Positions 44,744 through 50,918 of a stretch of DNA of 64,000 nucleotides are shown piece by piece (within the stretch, counting starts at the first letter, position 1; each line of letters begins with the position of its first letter). Origin of the DNA: Bradymonadia bacterium (lineage in GTDB: Bacteria > Myxococcota_A > Bradymonadia > UBA7976 > UBA1532); contig JBKAGE010000038.1 of the NCBI GenBank assembly GCA_046290225.1, positions 64,001-128,000 of the forward strand, in the 5' to 3' direction. The notes under the pieces are model-generated. The model saw nothing but the letters and a program-made list of their open reading frames with translations. It did not search any database and was not told where the DNA came from. The translations under genes were made by a program, and so were the position numbers.

Positions 44744-44818
44744 ACCCATCCTCTCTCAATGTATTTTCGAGATGGTGTTACCTTCTCTGGGCCTACCAAT
44801 GGCCACATGGGAGCGTTC

Positions 44819-45436
44819 ATGGATCTGCTCGATCTCTTCTCCACCCCGATCCTCGTGCAGCGACTCCCGGACATGGCACATCTCAATGTGAACTGCTTGA
44901 GCTGGATCAACGCTCGCCGAGCTGCCGATCCTGAGGGCATTCACAGGGCCAACGCGGGGGGAGGCTGGCACTCGACACCTGATCTCGCCCTGCGCCGTAC
45001 GGAGCCGTGCGGCCTGCTCCTCGATCACCTCGTAGCGGCGAGCCGGGAAGCCCTCGGCGCGCACTACCAGAGGATCACACCGGAGATGCCTCTCCTGGAG
45101 CTCGGCGTTCAGGCGTGGGCCATGGTCTTGGAGAAAGGGGGCTATGTGGTGCCCCACGATCATGTCGGGGGGCATTGGTCCGGGGTGTACTATGTCGACT
45201 CTGGAGACGCGGACTCAGGCGGTATGTTGAGCTTTCTGAGTCCGGTGACGGGTGCGCACAACGCGCCAGGGCTGCCGCCAGTGCCCACTGACTTCACCCT
45301 CACACCGGAGACGGGCATGCTCGTGCTCTTTCCGGCGTGGTTGAAGCACTGCGTGCACCCCTACCAGGGCGCTCGACCACGTGTTGCGGTGTCGTTCAAT
45401 CTCTCTCTCCGCACCCGACCACGCCCTGCGGGGTGA
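44819..45436 (+). CDS. Putative 2OG-Fe(II) oxygenase (TIGR02466-like)
   Basis: LFSTPI, NAGGGWHS, PHDH..WSGVYYV, LFPAWLKHCVHP, RVAVSFN. Confidence 0.85.
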   Translation: MDLLDLFSTPILVQRLPDMAHLNVNCLSWINARRAADPEGIHRANAGGGWHSTPDLALRRTEPCGLLLDHLVAASREALGAHYQRITPEMPLLELGVQAWAMVLEKGGYVVPHDHVGGHWSGVYYVDSGDADSGGMLSFLSPVTGAHNAPGLPPVPTDFTLTPETGMLVLFPAWLKHCVHPYQGARPRVAVSFNLSLRTRPRPAG

Positions 45437-45623: not shown

Positions 45624-47483
45624 ATGTCGAGTGCATACATCTACCCCCTGTCTCTGGCGGCCATCTCTGTCTTCGTCGCCATCTTGGAGTGGCGCTGGCC
45701 CAAGCGGCGTCAGCAGCAGCTACGCCCCGATCTGCTCTCCGACTTCATGCACCTCGTCTTCAACGGGCACTTCCTCGGGGTGATCCTCTTCGGGGTGGCC
45801 ACCCACTGGATCCTGCCTCATGTGGACATGTGGCTCGCCGGAGCTGGTCTCACTGAGACGCTGTACCGAAACGCCGCAAGCCAGTGGCCTGTGTGGGTAC
45901 AGATCGCCGTGTGCCTAGTGGTGGTGGACTTCGCCCAGTGGTGCGTTCACAACCTGCTGCATCGTGTGAGTTTTTTCTGGGGGTTCCACAAAACGCACCA
46001 CTCGGTGAAGAACGGCGAGATGGACTGGATCGTGTCGTTTCGGTTCCAGTGGACAGAGGTGGTCGTCTACAAAACCATCCTCTATCTGCCCCTGGCTTTC
46101 TTTGGCTTTGGCGAAGTCGCTGTCTTGACCCACGCCATCTTCGGCACCCTCATCGGGCACCTGAACCACGCCAACCTCGATCTCGACTACGGCCCCCTGC
46201 GGTATGTGCTCAACAACCCCAACATGCACATCTGGCATCACGACTACGAAGGCGACGCGCGCACCACAGTGAACTTCGGCATCATTTTCTCCACCTGGGA
46301 CTATCTGTTCCGTACGGCGAAGGTGCCTGATCACGATCCACCGCGCATCGGCTTCCCCGGGGTGGAGACTTACCCACGCAACTTCCTCGCCCAGATGGGC
46401 TGGCCGTTGAGCCAGTTCACTCAGGGCAGCGGTCACTTCGCCGCCGGCGCCCTCGGCATCGGTCTCATCGCTGGAGGGTGGCTGCTTCAAAAAGGCCCCA
46501 CGCACGCGCAGCACACCCCGATGTTCGGGGAGACGGCGGCGACCTCCCAACCTGCTGGGACGGGCGCAACACCAGGGCCTGGATCATTTGGCCAGAACGA
46601 AGCAGAGCGTACAGCGGCCCTCGCCGCCTTTGGGACCGAGGCTGCCGCCGCGGGGTTTCATGATCCGCAATCGATGGTGAGCGTGAAGGAGCTGGCCCGG
46701 GCGTTGGGGCACCCTCGACTGGTGTTGCTGGACGTGCGCCCGAAAGCACGCTTCGAGATGGGGCATATCCCCCTGGCGCAGCAAATCTACCGTGGCGACT
46801 ACTCGACCAGCGATGAGGTACCAGGCCTGTCCATGTCCTTCGATGCGTTGAGGCGCATGCTCAGTACCCTCGGGGTCCGCTCGGACTCGGTGGTGGTCGC
46901 CTATACCGACGGCGGCCCCGAAGCTTATCGGCTCTGGTGGACCCTCAAGCAGGTCACGGGTCTCTCGATCCGCGTACTCGATGGAGGTCTTCAGCAATGG
47001 AAGGCTCATGGCTTCGGCCTCGCCGAGGGCCGTGGGCTCGGCGTGAAGTCACACGATCTCGCCTTGGAGGCCCCTGCTCGACCACATCGCCCCAGCTGGG
47101 CAGCCATCGACGCCTTCCTGAAACGTCACGAGGACGCCGTCCTCATCGATACGCGCTCCAAGGCGGAGTTCGACGGTGAGAAGCACCACAAGAAAGCGGC
47201 TCGCCCCGGCCATATTCCTGGGGCGAGGTACATGCCGTGGTACGCCATCGTGCGAGACACAGAGACTGACTACCGCCTGAGCGTGCCAGGTGATCTCGCC
47301 CGGCGCTTTGAGGCGCTCGGGGTGACCCCGAAGGCCCCGGTGGTGACCTATTGTCAGTCGGGTACCCGCTCTGCAGGGGTGTACTATGCCCTCCATCAGC
47401 TGGGCTGGCCTCCGGATCGGCTGATGAACTACGACGGCTCCTGGGCCGAATACAGTCGTATGACAGACATGCCGGTGGAGTGA
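45624..47483 (+). CDS. Fatty-acid hydroxylase/sterol desaturase fused to tandem rhodanese (sulfurtransferase)
   Basis: His boxes HNLLH, HKTHH, HLNH, HIWHH and NFG..WDYLF; then LDVRP..GHIP, LDGG, GHIPGA, active-site YCQSGTR and C-terminal YDGSWAEY. Confidence 0.9.
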   Translation: MSSAYIYPLSLAAISVFVAILEWRWPKRRQQQLRPDLLSDFMHLVFNGHFLGVILFGVATHWILPHVDMWLAGAGLTETLYRNAASQWPVWVQIAVCLVVVDFAQWCVHNLLHRVSFFWGFHKTHHSVKNGEMDWIVSFRFQWTEVVVYKTILYLPLAFFGFGEVAVLTHAIFGTLIGHLNHANLDLDYGPLRYVLNNPNMHIWHHDYEGDARTTVNFGIIFSTWDYLFRTAKVPDHDPPRIGFPGVETYPRNFLAQMGWPLSQFTQGSGHFAAGALGIGLIAGGWLLQKGPTHAQHTPMFGETAATSQPAGTGATPGPGSFGQNEAERTAALAAFGTEAAAAGFHDPQSMVSVKELARALGHPRLVLLDVRPKARFEMGHIPLAQQIYRGDYSTSDEVPGLSMSFDALRRMLSTLGVRSDSVVVAYTDGGPEAYRLWWTLKQVTGLSIRVLDGGLQQWKAHGFGLAEGRGLGVKSHDLALEAPARPHRPSWAAIDAFLKRHEDAVLIDTRSKAEFDGEKHHKKAARPGHIPGARYMPWYAIVRDTETDYRLSVPGDLARRFEALGVTPKAPVVTYCQSGTRSAGVYYALHQLGWPPDRLMNYDGSWAEYSRMTDMPVE

Positions 47484-47484
47484 G

Positions 47485-48549
47485 ATGAGCGCTCAGCTTC
47501 ACCGACTCGCACTCGCGACGATGGCACTTGTCTGCCTTGCCTCAGCGTGCATGGCACCCGAAAGCATCTCCAACTCCGACTCGAGCACGGTACGAGGTGT
47601 CGCTCTGGGCCTCTTTGCCACAGATCCCGAGTTCGATTATGGAGACCTCGTCGATGAGATCGCCGCTCGAGGCGCCACGGAGGTACTGGTGGTGATCAAC
47701 GGGCACCAGAGCGATCTACACACTGCAGATGTCGCCCTGACGTATGGGCCCTCAGTCTCTACCATCGAGCGCACCTTCTCCCAGATCCGTCGTCACGGCA
47801 TGGGCATCACCGTGATGCCCACAGTACAGCTCCTTCGACGCTCCCCTGGGGTATGGCGAGGGCGCATCTCACCCCGTCAGGGGCCCAACGCCTGGTTCTC
47901 GGCCTATCGCCGCTTCATGCTCCCTCTCGCCCGCATGGCCTCGACGGCTGGGGCAGATCGCTTCATCGTCGGCAGCGAGCTGGTGAGTCTCACTGTGTAT
48001 GAGGCATCGTGGCGTGCCCTCATCAGCGAGCTGCGGACCATCTTTCCGGGGCGACTGACCTATTCGGCAAACTGGGATCACTACACTCAAGTGCCCTTCT
48101 GGGACGCCCTCGACGAGATCGGCGTCACCGGGTACTTCCCCCTCGTCGAATCGGGAGAGGCGATCCCAAGAGGCATCGCGGCGTGGCGCCCTCATCGAGA
48201 TGCGCTGAGCCACTTCGCGACACACCACGGCAAGCCCCTGCTCATCACCGAGCTGGGGTACGCGTCCACCCTTGGCGCGGCACAGTCTCCCTGGCAGGGC
48301 GGCGGCACCACCCCTTCTCGCGACGCGCTGCAGCTCCAAGCGGATCTCCTGACCCAGTTCTGTGATGCCTTCACCGCCCCCGACGCCAAGGCCATCGGCG
48401 GGTTCTTCTTCTGGAACTGGTTCGGGGTGGGCGGCCCTCGCGACCCGGGCTTCACCCCAAGAGGCAAGCCCGCAGCTCAGGCCGTGGAGCGCTGCCTGCG
48501 CAGCGCCCGATGGCCCAAACCCAAACCCGACGCAGTGGCAGCTCGATGA
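47485..48549 (+). CDS. GH113-like glycoside hydrolase (TIM barrel), lipoprotein
   Basis: LASAC lipobox; WRGRI, VGSEL, LTYSANWD, FWDALD, ITELGY, FTPRGKPA. Confidence 0.8.
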   Translation: MSAQLHRLALATMALVCLASACMAPESISNSDSSTVRGVALGLFATDPEFDYGDLVDEIAARGATEVLVVINGHQSDLHTADVALTYGPSVSTIERTFSQIRRHGMGITVMPTVQLLRRSPGVWRGRISPRQGPNAWFSAYRRFMLPLARMASTAGADRFIVGSELVSLTVYEASWRALISELRTIFPGRLTYSANWDHYTQVPFWDALDEIGVTGYFPLVESGEAIPRGIAAWRPHRDALSHFATHHGKPLLITELGYASTLGAAQSPWQGGGTTPSRDALQLQADLLTQFCDAFTAPDAKAIGGFFFWNWFGVGGPRDPGFTPRGKPAAQAVERCLRSARWPKPKPDAVAAR

Positions 48550-50228
48550 GCGACGTACCCACCCAACCATCTCACGAGGACACGCTGACGATGTCTGATC
48601 GACCCCACGTGAACCGCCGTCGCTTCATCAGCGGCGCCCTCGCCAGTGCCGGCCTGGTGGCTTCGGGCTGTCAGAGAGATCGCCCTCAGGGCAGAAGCAC
48701 GCCCACGCCTGGAGAGACCCCCGTGGCTCCCCCCCTGGTGTCGCCGCCGGCCAACCCCTCCCCAGGTGTGCCCTCGATGCCTTCTCTCCCTGAAGGCCTC
48801 GACCCATCACTGTTTCACATGCACACCCGTCGCCCCCTCACCTTGGAGGCGAAGCGCTCGAGCATGGGCCAGAGCCCCATCACCCCGCTGTCTCGCTTCT
48901 TCGTGCGCAACAACCTGCCCATGCCCGACGCCAGCATCACGGCCCGACCTGATCTCTGGGCCCTCGAGATCCTCGGCGTGGTTCAGCCGAACACGCTGAA
49001 CGTAGGCCAGCTCAAGCAGCTGCCTGCTCAAACCATCACCACAGTGCTGCAATGCTCTGGGAACGGCCGCAAGTACTATGAGCACGGCCCCTCGGGCTCT
49101 CAATGGGGTACGGGCGCCGCCGGCTGCGCCATGTGGACAGGGGTGTCTGTGGCCACGGTCGTACAGGCCCTTGGTGGCGCGCTCGATGACACACGCTTCA
49201 TGACCAGCACCGGCGGCGAGGTGCTCCCCGAGGGCATCGATCCGCTCACCGCCATCGTCGAACGCTCCATCCCAAAGGAGAAAGGCCTGCAGGACTGCCT
49301 GCTCGCCTGGGAGATGAATGGTCAGCCAATCCCCATCACCCATGGGGGCCCCCTGCGACTCATCGTGCCCGGTTACTATGGCTGCAACCAGATCAAGTAC
49401 ATCAAGCGCCTCGCCTTCACCGCCGAGCAGACCCGCTCGAAGATCCAATCTTCGGGGTACCGCCTTCGGCGCATCGGCGCAAAAGGCAACCCCAGCCAGC
49501 CCTCGATGTGGCAGATGAACGTCAAGTCGTGGATCAACGGCCCCGGCGCTGACGATGCCCCGGTACTCGCTGGCCCGGTGCAGCTTCACGGCGTGGCGTT
49601 TGCCGGGGGCACACCGATCGAGACGGTGGAGATCACCCTCGACGGCGGCCAAACATGGCAGCCCGCGCGGTTCACCGGACCTGATTTGGGGCCCTACGCA
49701 TGGCGCACCTTCGCCTTCGAGACCCAGCTGCAGCCCGGCGAGCACGTCATCGCCTCTCGGGCCACCGACGCCGAGGGCAACCAGCAACCTCGACGCCGAC
49801 TCGAGAACGAGCGCGGCTACGGCAACAACGCCTGGGGCGATCTCGCCTTGAAGGTGAAGGTGGTGAAGACATTGCCAAAGCCTGTCCCTGAGCCCACCCC
49901 GTCGAAGGCACCTCCAACCGCAAAGGGCCACAACAGCTCACCATCTTCGTCAGGGAAGAAGGCGAAGCTTTCCGCTCAAGGTGAGCGCGGCAAAGTGCTC
50001 TTCACCCAGACCGCTCAGCCCTCATGCTCAGTGTGCCACAGCCTCGCAGACGCTGGCTCGAAGGGGGCGGTCGGCCCCGACCTGAACGACCTCGCCCCGG
50101 ACGCGCAGCGGGTGGTCCAGGCTGTGACCCATGGTGTAGGCACCATGCCCGCTTTCAAGGGCAACCTCTCGCCCGACCAGATTAAAGATCTGGCGCAATA
50201 CATCGTCGAAGCCACGAGCACCCCCTGA
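48546..50228 (+). CDS. Tat-exported sulfite oxidase-family molybdoenzyme (SorT/SorA-like) fused to a C-terminal c-type cytochrome (SorU-like)
   Basis: NRRRFI Tat motif and ASGC lipobox; FFVRNNL, LQCSGNGR, MNGQPIP..HGGPLRLIVPGYYG; CSVCH..GPDL..GTMPAF. Start 48546 (ATGA overlap) or 48591. Confidence 0.9.
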   Translation: MSDVPTQPSHEDTLTMSDRPHVNRRRFISGALASAGLVASGCQRDRPQGRSTPTPGETPVAPPLVSPPANPSPGVPSMPSLPEGLDPSLFHMHTRRPLTLEAKRSSMGQSPITPLSRFFVRNNLPMPDASITARPDLWALEILGVVQPNTLNVGQLKQLPAQTITTVLQCSGNGRKYYEHGPSGSQWGTGAAGCAMWTGVSVATVVQALGGALDDTRFMTSTGGEVLPEGIDPLTAIVERSIPKEKGLQDCLLAWEMNGQPIPITHGGPLRLIVPGYYGCNQIKYIKRLAFTAEQTRSKIQSSGYRLRRIGAKGNPSQPSMWQMNVKSWINGPGADDAPVLAGPVQLHGVAFAGGTPIETVEITLDGGQTWQPARFTGPDLGPYAWRTFAFETQLQPGEHVIASRATDAEGNQQPRRRLENERGYGNNAWGDLALKVKVVKTLPKPVPEPTPSKAPPTAKGHNSSPSSSGKKAKLSAQGERGKVLFTQTAQPSCSVCHSLADAGSKGAVGPDLNDLAPDAQRVVQAVTHGVGTMPAFKGNLSPDQIKDLAQYIVEATSTP

Positions 50229-50342: not shown

Positions 50343-50918
50343 ATGCGCACGCTTGCTCTGCTCACTTTCCTCTCGCTCACGCTGTTCTCAGAGATTGCTC
50401 TGGCCAAAGAGCCGGGCAACGAGGCCATCAAGGCCGACTGGGAAGCCCTCCTCGCCACCCAGTGCGATCTCACCGCTCGCAACGTGCGCACCCCATTCGC
50501 CGCGTCGGTCCTGCGCAATACGCCCTATGCCCTGGCGGGATACACCTTCAAGAGTGAGGGGTTGCGTGCGCTCTTCGCCGCCGACGGCAGCTGGTACACC
50601 CCCAAGGGCAAGATCAAACCGAAGTTCACCGCCGAGGTGAAGGCCTGCATCGACAAGATCAGGGCCTTCGAAGCTGAACAGGGCTTCAAGAGCAGCAGCT
50701 GGAAGACGCTCAAAGAGCGGGTCTTCAAAGATCGCCTCACCTATCTTGAGATCCGCGGCCACAGCCTCATCATGAAGGGCGGGCCCTCGACGACCTCGGC
50801 CATGGGGCCCGACATGGACGTGCGGTGCCCCACCTGCGAAGGGCTCAGGGTGTTCCAGCTTCACTGTGACGATCGCGAGTGCCTGGTCCTGGTGCCCGGC
50901 ACCGGGATGGCCCCCTGA
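50343..50918 (+). CDS. Secreted YARHG-like domain protein
   Basis: Signal peptide; LRNTPYALAGYTFKSEGLRALF..WYTP matches the YARHG pattern with a divergent core. Confidence 0.7.
   Translation: MRTLALLTFLSLTLFSEIALAKEPGNEAIKADWEALLATQCDLTARNVRTPFAASVLRNTPYALAGYTFKSEGLRALFAADGSWYTPKGKIKPKFTAEVKACIDKIRAFEAEQGFKSSSWKTLKERVFKDRLTYLEIRGHSLIMKGGPSTTSAMGPDMDVRCPTCEGLRVFQLHCDDRECLVLVPGTGMAP

Follow-up and report, generated by a model that had tools for sequence, protein, structure and literature searches.

Rhodaneses move sulfane sulfur among thiosulfate, polysulfide, persulfides, thiols and sulfite, and in the SQR-PDO-rhodanese systems (Cupriavidus pinatubonensis; CstB and the PDO-rhodanese fusions) sulfane sulfur is managed by a rhodanese fused to an oxidizing domain (PMC9163753). 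The sulfite dehydrogenase SorT of Sinorhizobium meliloti hands electrons from sulfite to the cytochrome SorU and is induced by taurine and thiosulfate (PMC4760952 and PMC3511301, respectively). Here we describe a unit of three genes in a stretch of 64,000 nucleotides (the window) from a Bradymonadia bacterium, contig JBKAGE010000038.1, positions 64,001 to 128,000. The product of gene 1 joins a di-iron membrane domain of the fatty-acid-hydroxylase family to a tandem rhodanese. Gene 2 encodes a GH113 glycosidase-like lipoprotein, and gene 3 a SorT-like molybdoenzyme fused to a SorU-like cytochrome c. Judging from sequence comparisons, we lean moderately towards reading this operon as a conserved envelope module that disposes of reduced sulfur, from thiosulfate or sulfane via sulfite to sulfate.

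The three-gene arrangement is far beyond chance. A first-pass annotation of the window had noted three co-directional genes joined by a 1-nt gap and an ATGA overlap, all of which are present in the sequence, and its domain identities (hydroxylase/desaturase-rhodanese, GH113, SorT-cytochrome c) were borne out by Pfam and NCBIfam domain matches. It would have been refuted had the three genes never co-occurred in other genomes, but they do. Close homologues bear Myxococcota names, and the host is taken to belong to that phylum. In a sample of 401 genomes of the phylum Myxococcota, matches to gene 1 at E≤1e-45 were found in 44, and 19 genomes, all of which were examined, carried the hydroxylase-rhodanese fusion (18 full-length, one split). 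A GH113 gene lies next to the fusion in 18 of these 19, in one case across a contig break (G352), while G014 is without it. A sulfite dehydrogenase adjoins the fusion in 15 of the 19, either as a downstream SorT-SorU gene (12 genomes) or as a divergent SorA-like and SorB-like pair (three, one apparently truncated). Genome-wide, a Sor match at E≤1e-52 was detected in 39 of the 401 genomes, 15 of them among the 19 with the fusion and 24 among the remaining 382. As for the fusions that have no adjacent Sor gene, G028 carries a SorT elsewhere, and G014, G209 and G392 gave no match at this threshold. The fusion family as a whole comprised 236 matches, the best 120 of which all possess both domains at 53-65% identity.

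The junctions between the genes are conserved as well. Stop and start codons of the first two genes overlap in most other copies, and the GH113/SorT-SorU junctions overlap in all of the 12 other loci in which SorT-SorU follows GH113 (ATGA in nine, a one-base overlap in two and GTGA in one). The translational coupling of these genes is thus conserved despite a possible alternative start of gene 3, the in-frame ATG at 48591 with GAGGA 10 nt upstream, which is used by one public gene call. The unit is flanked on the same strand by a TIGR02466 2OG-Fe(II) oxygenase gene upstream (44759-45436) and by a gene for a YARHG protein downstream (50343-50918). When the loci were clustered for comparison, no homologue of either flanking gene was found beside the other copies, and we therefore take the unit to consist of these three genes (Table 1). 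A promoter and terminator scan of the locus returned hits at chance level.

Table 1. Coordinates of the three genes, their junctions and the parts of gene 1 in the window (aa, amino acids).
Feature	Position	Strand	Description
Gene 1	45624..47483	+	619 aa; fatty-acid-hydroxylase (sterol-desaturase family) di-iron membrane domain plus tandem rhodanese
Di-iron membrane domain	45624..46418	+	aa 1-265 of gene 1; five predicted transmembrane helices
Sixth predicted transmembrane helix	46431..46490	+	aa 270-289 of gene 1; helix in the AF2 model; would carry the rhodanese to the periplasm
Tandem rhodanese	46656..47480	+	aa 345-619 of gene 1; catalytic Cys577 (codon 47352-47354) in the loop CQSGTR
Gene 1/2 junction	47481..47487	+	TGA-g-ATG; 1-nt gap
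Gene 2	47485..48549	+	354 aa; GH113 TIM-barrel glycosidase-like lipoprotein
Gene 2/3 junction	48546..48549	+	ATGA overlap
Gene 3	48546..50228	+	560 aa from the ATG at 48546; SorT-like molybdoenzyme fused to SorU-like cytochrome c

In gene 1, the FA_hydroxylase domain spans residues 95-231 (PF04116 at 90.9 bits, cut-off 31) and is accompanied by two rhodanese stretches. The histidine boxes of the former (H109/H113, H122/H125/H126, H179/H182 and H202/H205/H206) are predicted to face the cytoplasm. Neither the ten histidines nor Cys577 vary in any of the 98 fusion homologues, and nine histidines are invariant in 58 sequences drawn from the two hydroxylase clades described below. Since the di-iron domain keeps every ligand, it is likely to be an active, O2-using enzyme. 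Six membrane helices, with the histidine boxes inside and the rhodanese outside, are predicted on the basis of family hydropathy, a basic loop after helix 1 and the positive-inside rule. Of the 98 homologues of this fusion, 92 retain the hydrophobic segment of helix 6. The AlphaFold model of gene 1 has a pLDDT of 91 and a pTM of 0.75. In this model the fold of the membrane domain was matched best, though weakly, by Scs7p (Z 6.1, rmsd 4.7, 165 residues aligned; Foldseek E 0.9); Foldseek searches with the membrane domain returned nothing at E≤0.001, and the ESM Atlas yielded generic family names only. The rhodanese part is closest to two-domain TSTs (RhdA of A. vinelandii, 1E0C, TM 0.86 by target) and has the tandem fold, with Cys577 opening a six-residue loop in the second rhodanese domain. 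Of 120 proteins, 90 show the loop sequence CQSGTR, 27 were missed by the search pattern and three differ.

Several more specific assignments for gene 1 were considered and rejected. The match to the 3-mercaptopyruvate sulfurtransferase SseA (PRK11493) reached 91.7 bits versus a cut-off of 250, and that to the ornithine lipid hydroxylase OlsE, the best NCBIfam match, only 79.5 bits versus 475. Judged by motif spacing, with no AGMO sequence aligned, T215 and F218 stand in place of the essential AGMO residues D233 and Y236. By the same measure the AGMO-type N217, W225 and D226 are kept, and the equivalent of Q162 could not be placed with confidence. A YeeE-like thiol relay through the membrane domain was likewise discarded, as no cysteine is conserved across both hydroxylase clades. 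A complex prediction for the rhodanese and the GH113 protein scored 0.02.

Gene 3 contains Oxidored_molyb, Mo-co_dimer and cytochrome c domains behind a twin-arginine lipoprotein signal (R24-R26, Cys42). Within the SorT-like part (residues 92-439), Arg121 and Cys170 align with the active-site Arg78 and the molybdenum ligand Cys127 of SorT, and the SorU-like cytochrome (residues 478-556) keeps its heme ligands (CSVCH at 494-498, and Met534). Compared with solved structures, gene 3 matches SorT (4PW3) at E 6e-111 and SorU (4PW9) at E 1.6e-15. Its score of 519 bits against the NCBIfam SorT model is below the cut-off of 570 and it was therefore filed as SorT-like; the Sor matches in all 39 genomes of the sample are likewise below this cut-off. 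The SorU model NF052248 scored 104 bits (cut-off 100).

A second, differently built version of the same association was found in the Bacteroidota. At the Flavobacteriales locus L126, a SorA-like and a SorB-like gene accompany a reverse fusion, in which a signal peptide and tandem rhodanese precede the hydroxylase, and the corresponding family comprises 89 consecutive near-full-length matches. The reverse fusion was present in only one of 401 genomes in a Bacteroidota-wide search, and is thus lineage-restricted; full-length copies were found in 11 of 201 and two of 61 genomes of two families. SorAB-like genes lie beside it in 11 of 13 loci, and a Sor gene was nearby in none of four closely related stand-alone hydroxylases. 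Some of the reverse fusions have further rhodanese genes, TauE, YeeE or an SQR in their surroundings (TauE, YeeE and SQR at L136-L139). Since 80 of the 89 reverse fusions have a signal-like N-terminus, their rhodanese is also predicted to be periplasmic. In a quick IQ-TREE phylogeny with two long outgroups, the hydroxylase clades of the forward and reverse fusions are separated by a branch of 1.32 (SH-aLRT 100), and the identity between the two fusions is 38.6% in the hydroxylase and 25.6% in the rhodanese domain. By these comparisons the sulfur core was assembled twice, independently, from distant hydroxylase clades. That two unrelated lineages fused the same types of domain beside a sulfite dehydrogenase argues for selection on a real coupling. 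A membrane protein of ∼75 residues, with no named family, recurs beside the hydroxylase or the rhodanese in both phyla (L119:8059-8274, L136:11192-11428 and L098:7971-8204).

To place the hydroxylase subfamily in a wider context, we took the 80 best among 544 metagenome matches and counted the genes within a radius of 4 kb at the 44 loci with at least 4 kb of flank. Genes for sulfur oxidation or transport (SQR, PDO, TauE, YeeE, DsrE) were present at 18 of these loci, rhodanese genes at 12, arsenosugar genes at seven and GH113 genes at six. At random sites in the host genome, which offer only a rough yardstick, the corresponding values were 0.3% for sulfur, 0.1% for rhodanese and 1.0% for arsenosugar genes. 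Rare fusion partners of the hydroxylase are TsdA, a single rhodanese (P0240), GH113, a methyltransferase and the TPM domain (P0272, P0279, P0280, P0289 and P0295). The TsdA-like diheme thiosulfate dehydrogenase fused in P0409 (a cluster of four) matches 4WQC at E 1.6e-44, and the GH113 fusions P0390, P0331 and P0391, from Ca. Krumholzibacteria, belong to one cluster of four with a lipobox-like junction. Several of these rare fusions look as though translation had run on into the signal peptide encoded by the following gene, and they were therefore weighted lightly.

Further sulfur genes lie beside some copies of the operon. Neighbours were labelled by Pfam and NCBIfam scans of selected open reading frames from our own gene caller, or by BLAST to those frames; matches labelled PDO or SQR either score under the curated cut-offs or were so named from their domain content. 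In its largest version (L087:2408-12959 and L088:845-9877), the operon is joined by PDO-rhodanese, YeeE, DUF6691 and SulP genes, and is preceded by a TsdA-like cytochrome gene and either SQR fragments or another PDO gene. DsrE and an ArsR-rhodanese are neighbours at L084, and the stand-alone hydroxylases of L093 and L114 also abut a SorT-SorU gene. One fusion from a record titled Enterobacterales (L050) nests in the Myxococcota clade, and its label is probably wrong. In genus g69, a protein of ∼430 residues with a lipase-like GxSxG-type motif and no Pfam match is encoded between a PDO-like gene and the hydroxylase (L077:756-2051 and L092:7136-8422); its counterpart at L090 is fused to PDO. A sulfatase lies near several g69 loci.

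How the module may work can be outlined as follows. The membrane-anchored, predicted periplasmic tandem rhodanese would move sulfane sulfur from thiosulfate or persulfides and free sulfite, which the SorT-SorU fusion would then oxidize to sulfate. With both enzymes in the periplasm, thiosulfate would be drawn towards sulfate, leaving a sulfane atom to be disposed of. The fused di-iron domain is the likely candidate for an O2-using step on membrane-soluble sulfur. Its sulfur-gene company suggests a sulfur substrate, and as the tunnel fold normally takes lipids we would guess that this substrate is hydrophobic; S8, organic polysulfides or bilayer thiols come to mind. Both the direction of flux and the di-iron substrate are thus what we infer from context. 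The rhodanese-to-sulfite-to-sulfate logic had been put forward in the first-pass annotation, and the gene order, junction overlaps and Sor co-occurrence are consistent with it. The di-iron domain and the GH113 protein had struck that annotation as the odd members of the operon. The former does belong, as judged by its occurrence in sulfur clusters and by at least two independent rhodanese fusions; the GH113 protein is absent from all 13 Bacteroidota loci with the same core. The host genome (8.58 Mb, 99% complete) encodes two PDO-like proteins, YeeE/DUF6691, SulP and TauE, and contains no SoxB over cut-off (best 22 of 550 bits). Neither sqr nor pdo lies within the three-gene unit, the PDO-like genes being located elsewhere in the genome.

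That the di-iron domain oxidizes sulfur directly is a tentative proposal. Still more tentative is the wider idea that this 'sterol desaturase' subfamily consists of sulfur oxygenases, equivalent in the membrane to persulfide dioxygenase, that act on S8 or organic polysulfides dissolved in the bilayer. With the tethered periplasmic rhodanese and the sulfite dehydrogenase, they would make up a route to sulfate from thiosulfate and zero-valent sulfur that is undescribed, does not depend on Sox and was assembled twice. If this were true, the same chemistry on methyl-arsenic would explain the hydroxylases in arsenosugar clusters.

A number of observations weigh against a sulfur-disposing module. 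Four of the 19 fusions have no adjacent Sor gene, and of the sample's 26 SorT-type genes, 12 are located away from a hydroxylase; some of these lie beside PF03601 (presumably a sulfate exporter), cysteine synthase or PDO genes. Moreover, genus g69 supplies seven of the 19 fusion genomes, so the counts are not independent, and three reference queries of the 44-locus survey came from loci that were themselves counted. No SQR was found in the host genome with the two queries used. At L147-L150 and in three g69 genomes the hydroxylase is kept with no rhodanese, GH113 or Sor gene nearby, so the hydroxylase has a role apart from this module. In the three g69 loci (L089, L090 and L092) the sixth helix is retained as well, and block loss is likely. 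The same subfamily occurs in arsenosugar clusters that lack sulfur-oxidation genes (seven of 44 loci), and these copies are 59-78% identical to those in sulfur contexts. Finally, the di-iron site and the rhodanese are predicted to lie on opposite sides of the membrane, in the cytoplasm and the periplasm, respectively, which makes a direct transfer between them hard to picture. No cysteine is common to both clades, and no reductase gene recurs nearby. Together with the many stand-alone copies, these points would also allow the domain simply to modify lipids.

Such a role is the alternative that survives best, although we regard it as unlikely. The rhodanese and the sulfite dehydrogenase would dispose of sulfur, while the di-iron protein, as an ordinary lipid hydroxylase or desaturase, and the GH113 protein, as a glycan remodeller, would adapt the envelope to stress from sulfide or sulfane and be no more than co-regulated. 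The nearest family matches, OlsE and Scs7p, are in line with this, as are the persistence of the domain as a stand-alone gene and the Dps, GST and DsbA-like genes among the neighbours. To our knowledge, all characterized relatives of the hydroxylase act on lipids. Fusions also seem to come easily in this family, given the read-through-like cases mentioned above. Two of the rhodanese fusions, however, have become whole families, and the neighbours are specifically sulfur genes in several phyla, which speaks against this alternative.

The GH113 protein bears on a second alternative. Gene 2 matches the GH113 profile with 125.8 bits (cut-off 27), has a lipobox-like LASA-C22 and probably encodes an active glycosidase. 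The two glutamates of the catalytic motif correspond to Glu165 and Glu256, which none of the 22 operonic rows has lost. GH113s of the operon group in a single clade (24 rows, 22 of them operonic; SH 99) whose subgroups mirror the hydroxylase tree by eye, and which nests among myxobacterial GH113s, separate from the Bacteroidota ones; the host genome has five GH113 paralogues. GH113 has become linked to the hydroxylase family on three separate occasions and is a regular part of the myxobacterial operon, and the Bacteroidota core is built without it. We take it to be a co-inherited accessory of the myxobacterial version, dispensable for the sulfur core. Hydroxylase and GH113 genes co-occur in 24 of 61 Flavobacteriales genomes, never adjacent; marine kinship may explain this and it was not used as support. 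Two GH113 genes of the operonic clade (L066:2530-7999 and L068:316-5769) are divergent from genes for a sodium:solute symporter and a large unassigned protein, a possible clue to the substrate.

The first-pass annotation had supposed, as one possibility, that the operon might strip sulfur from a glycoside or lipid. In an extended form, the substrate would be an organic amphiphile (a sulfonolipid, thioether or thioglycoside) derived from prey or detritus; GH113 would remove its sugar, the di-iron domain would hydroxylate the carbon beside the sulfur in the manner of AGMO ether cleavage, and the rhodanese and SorT would clear the sulfur. The GH113 partner in 18 of 19 genomes, with both glutamates kept, the GH113 fusion in Ca. 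Krumholzibacteria, the g69 sulfatases and the induction of SorT by taurine and thiosulfate (PMC3511301) would all suit this scheme. Yet GH113 is missing at 13 of 13 Bacteroidota fusion loci, the recurrent neighbours are inorganic-sulfur genes, the AGMO-essential D233 and Y236 are not kept, as judged by motif spacing, and the GH113 fusion is a single cluster of four sequences. Apart from the g69 sulfatase, no sulfonate-catabolism gene recurred among the annotated neighbours, part of which were scanned. We therefore did not adopt this scheme and consider it quite improbable.

Very unlikely, in our view, is a role of the hydroxylase, rhodanese and GH113 proteins in the metabolism of methyl-arsenic (arsenosugars, thio-arsenicals or arsenolipids), with Sor removing the sulfite left by thiosulfate as sulfur donor. 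Clusters with ArsS, ArsM, PNP, TIGR04282/3 and DUF547 genes in Bacteroidota (L209, L238, L242, L245, L249, L127 and L131) do include the same three family types, namely hydroxylase, rhodanese and often GH113. They differ in belonging to another hydroxylase clade, in their single-domain rhodanese (rhoda_near_glyco), in another GH113 clade and in the absence of Sor, and none of the arsenosugar core genes lies beside the operon in the window. None of the 71 rows of the window's hydroxylase clade (12 duplicates or near-duplicates left out) has an arsenic context, all such copies being in the other clade, and no locus of the 44 carries both sulfur and arsenic genes. The arsenosugar context is thus real for the other clade and was rejected for that of the window. 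The host does possess ArsS and TIGR04282 over cut-off, on other contigs, and an ArsM-like protein under cut-off, also elsewhere, with no TIGR04283 over cut-off in its genome. One of its GH113 paralogues (L073:6206-12921, C82) has DUF547 on one side and, on the other, a gene resembling arsenite methyltransferases (175 of 263 bits). Least probable of all is that the rhodanese builds a C-S bond on a lipid or glycolipid activated by the hydroxylase, with Sor removing by-product sulfite, as EanB, which forms such a bond on hercynine, appeared among the rhodanese matches but more weakly than the plain two-domain TSTs such as RhdA, and no biosynthetic genes recur nearby.

The operon is real, conserved, built from known families and apparently undescribed. 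The combination of hydroxylase-rhodanese, GH113 and Sor did not appear in the full-text literature searched, which largely excluded subscription journals, although the supplementary tables of PMC12345210 may list the genes; nor was this lipid-type enzyme family tied there to sulfur metabolism. If the di-iron domain oxidizes sulfur, it would represent both a new enzyme activity and a new route. The operon provides a large family annotated only as 'sterol desaturase' with a testable role in sulfur metabolism. Heterotrophs are thought to be responsible for much of the sulfur oxidation in marine sediment. In one survey all 37 binned SorA genes were in metagenome-assembled genomes of Myxococcota, and the available text of that source (PMC12345210) does not name what feeds them; the operon is a candidate upstream partner.

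Set against the systems known so far, the sulfur-disposing module combines familiar parts in a different manner. SorT and SorU of S. meliloti are the closest solved relatives of gene 3, with which they share the Arg, Cys, CXXCH and Met residues and the twin-arginine export signal, but gene 3 is a single fused lipoprotein in an operon with the rhodanese-hydroxylase and GH113. SorAB of the Starkeya novella type is not the window's form; SorA-like and SorB-like pairs, scoring far under cut-off (199-253 of 600 and 26-30 of 93, respectively), replace SorT-SorU beside the fusion in some Myxococcota and in Bacteroidota. Gene 2 shares the TIM barrel and both catalytic-motif glutamates with the GH113 beta-1,4-mannanases (3CIV, 4CD6, 5YLH and 7DV7), from which it differs as a distant lipoprotein (only E ∼1e-26 to the solved enzymes) of the myxobacterial radiation. 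With the fatty acid hydroxylase superfamily (Scs7p, OlsE, AGMO), gene 1 has in common the full histidine set, AGMO-like spacing and the downstream Asn, Trp and Asp, whereas it is far under the OlsE cut-off, lacks equivalents of AGMO D233 and Y236 as well as the extra C-terminal helices, and stands in a sulfur-gene context. Like the SQR-PDO-rhodanese systems, whose PDO-like and SQR proteins, along with TauE and YeeE, are frequent neighbours of the hydroxylase subfamily, the module joins a rhodanese to a putative oxidizing domain. In the former, however, the fusion partner of the rhodaneses is SQR or PDO and they act on the cytoplasmic face of the membrane, whereas here the rhodanese is predicted to be periplasmic and is fused to a di-iron membrane domain.

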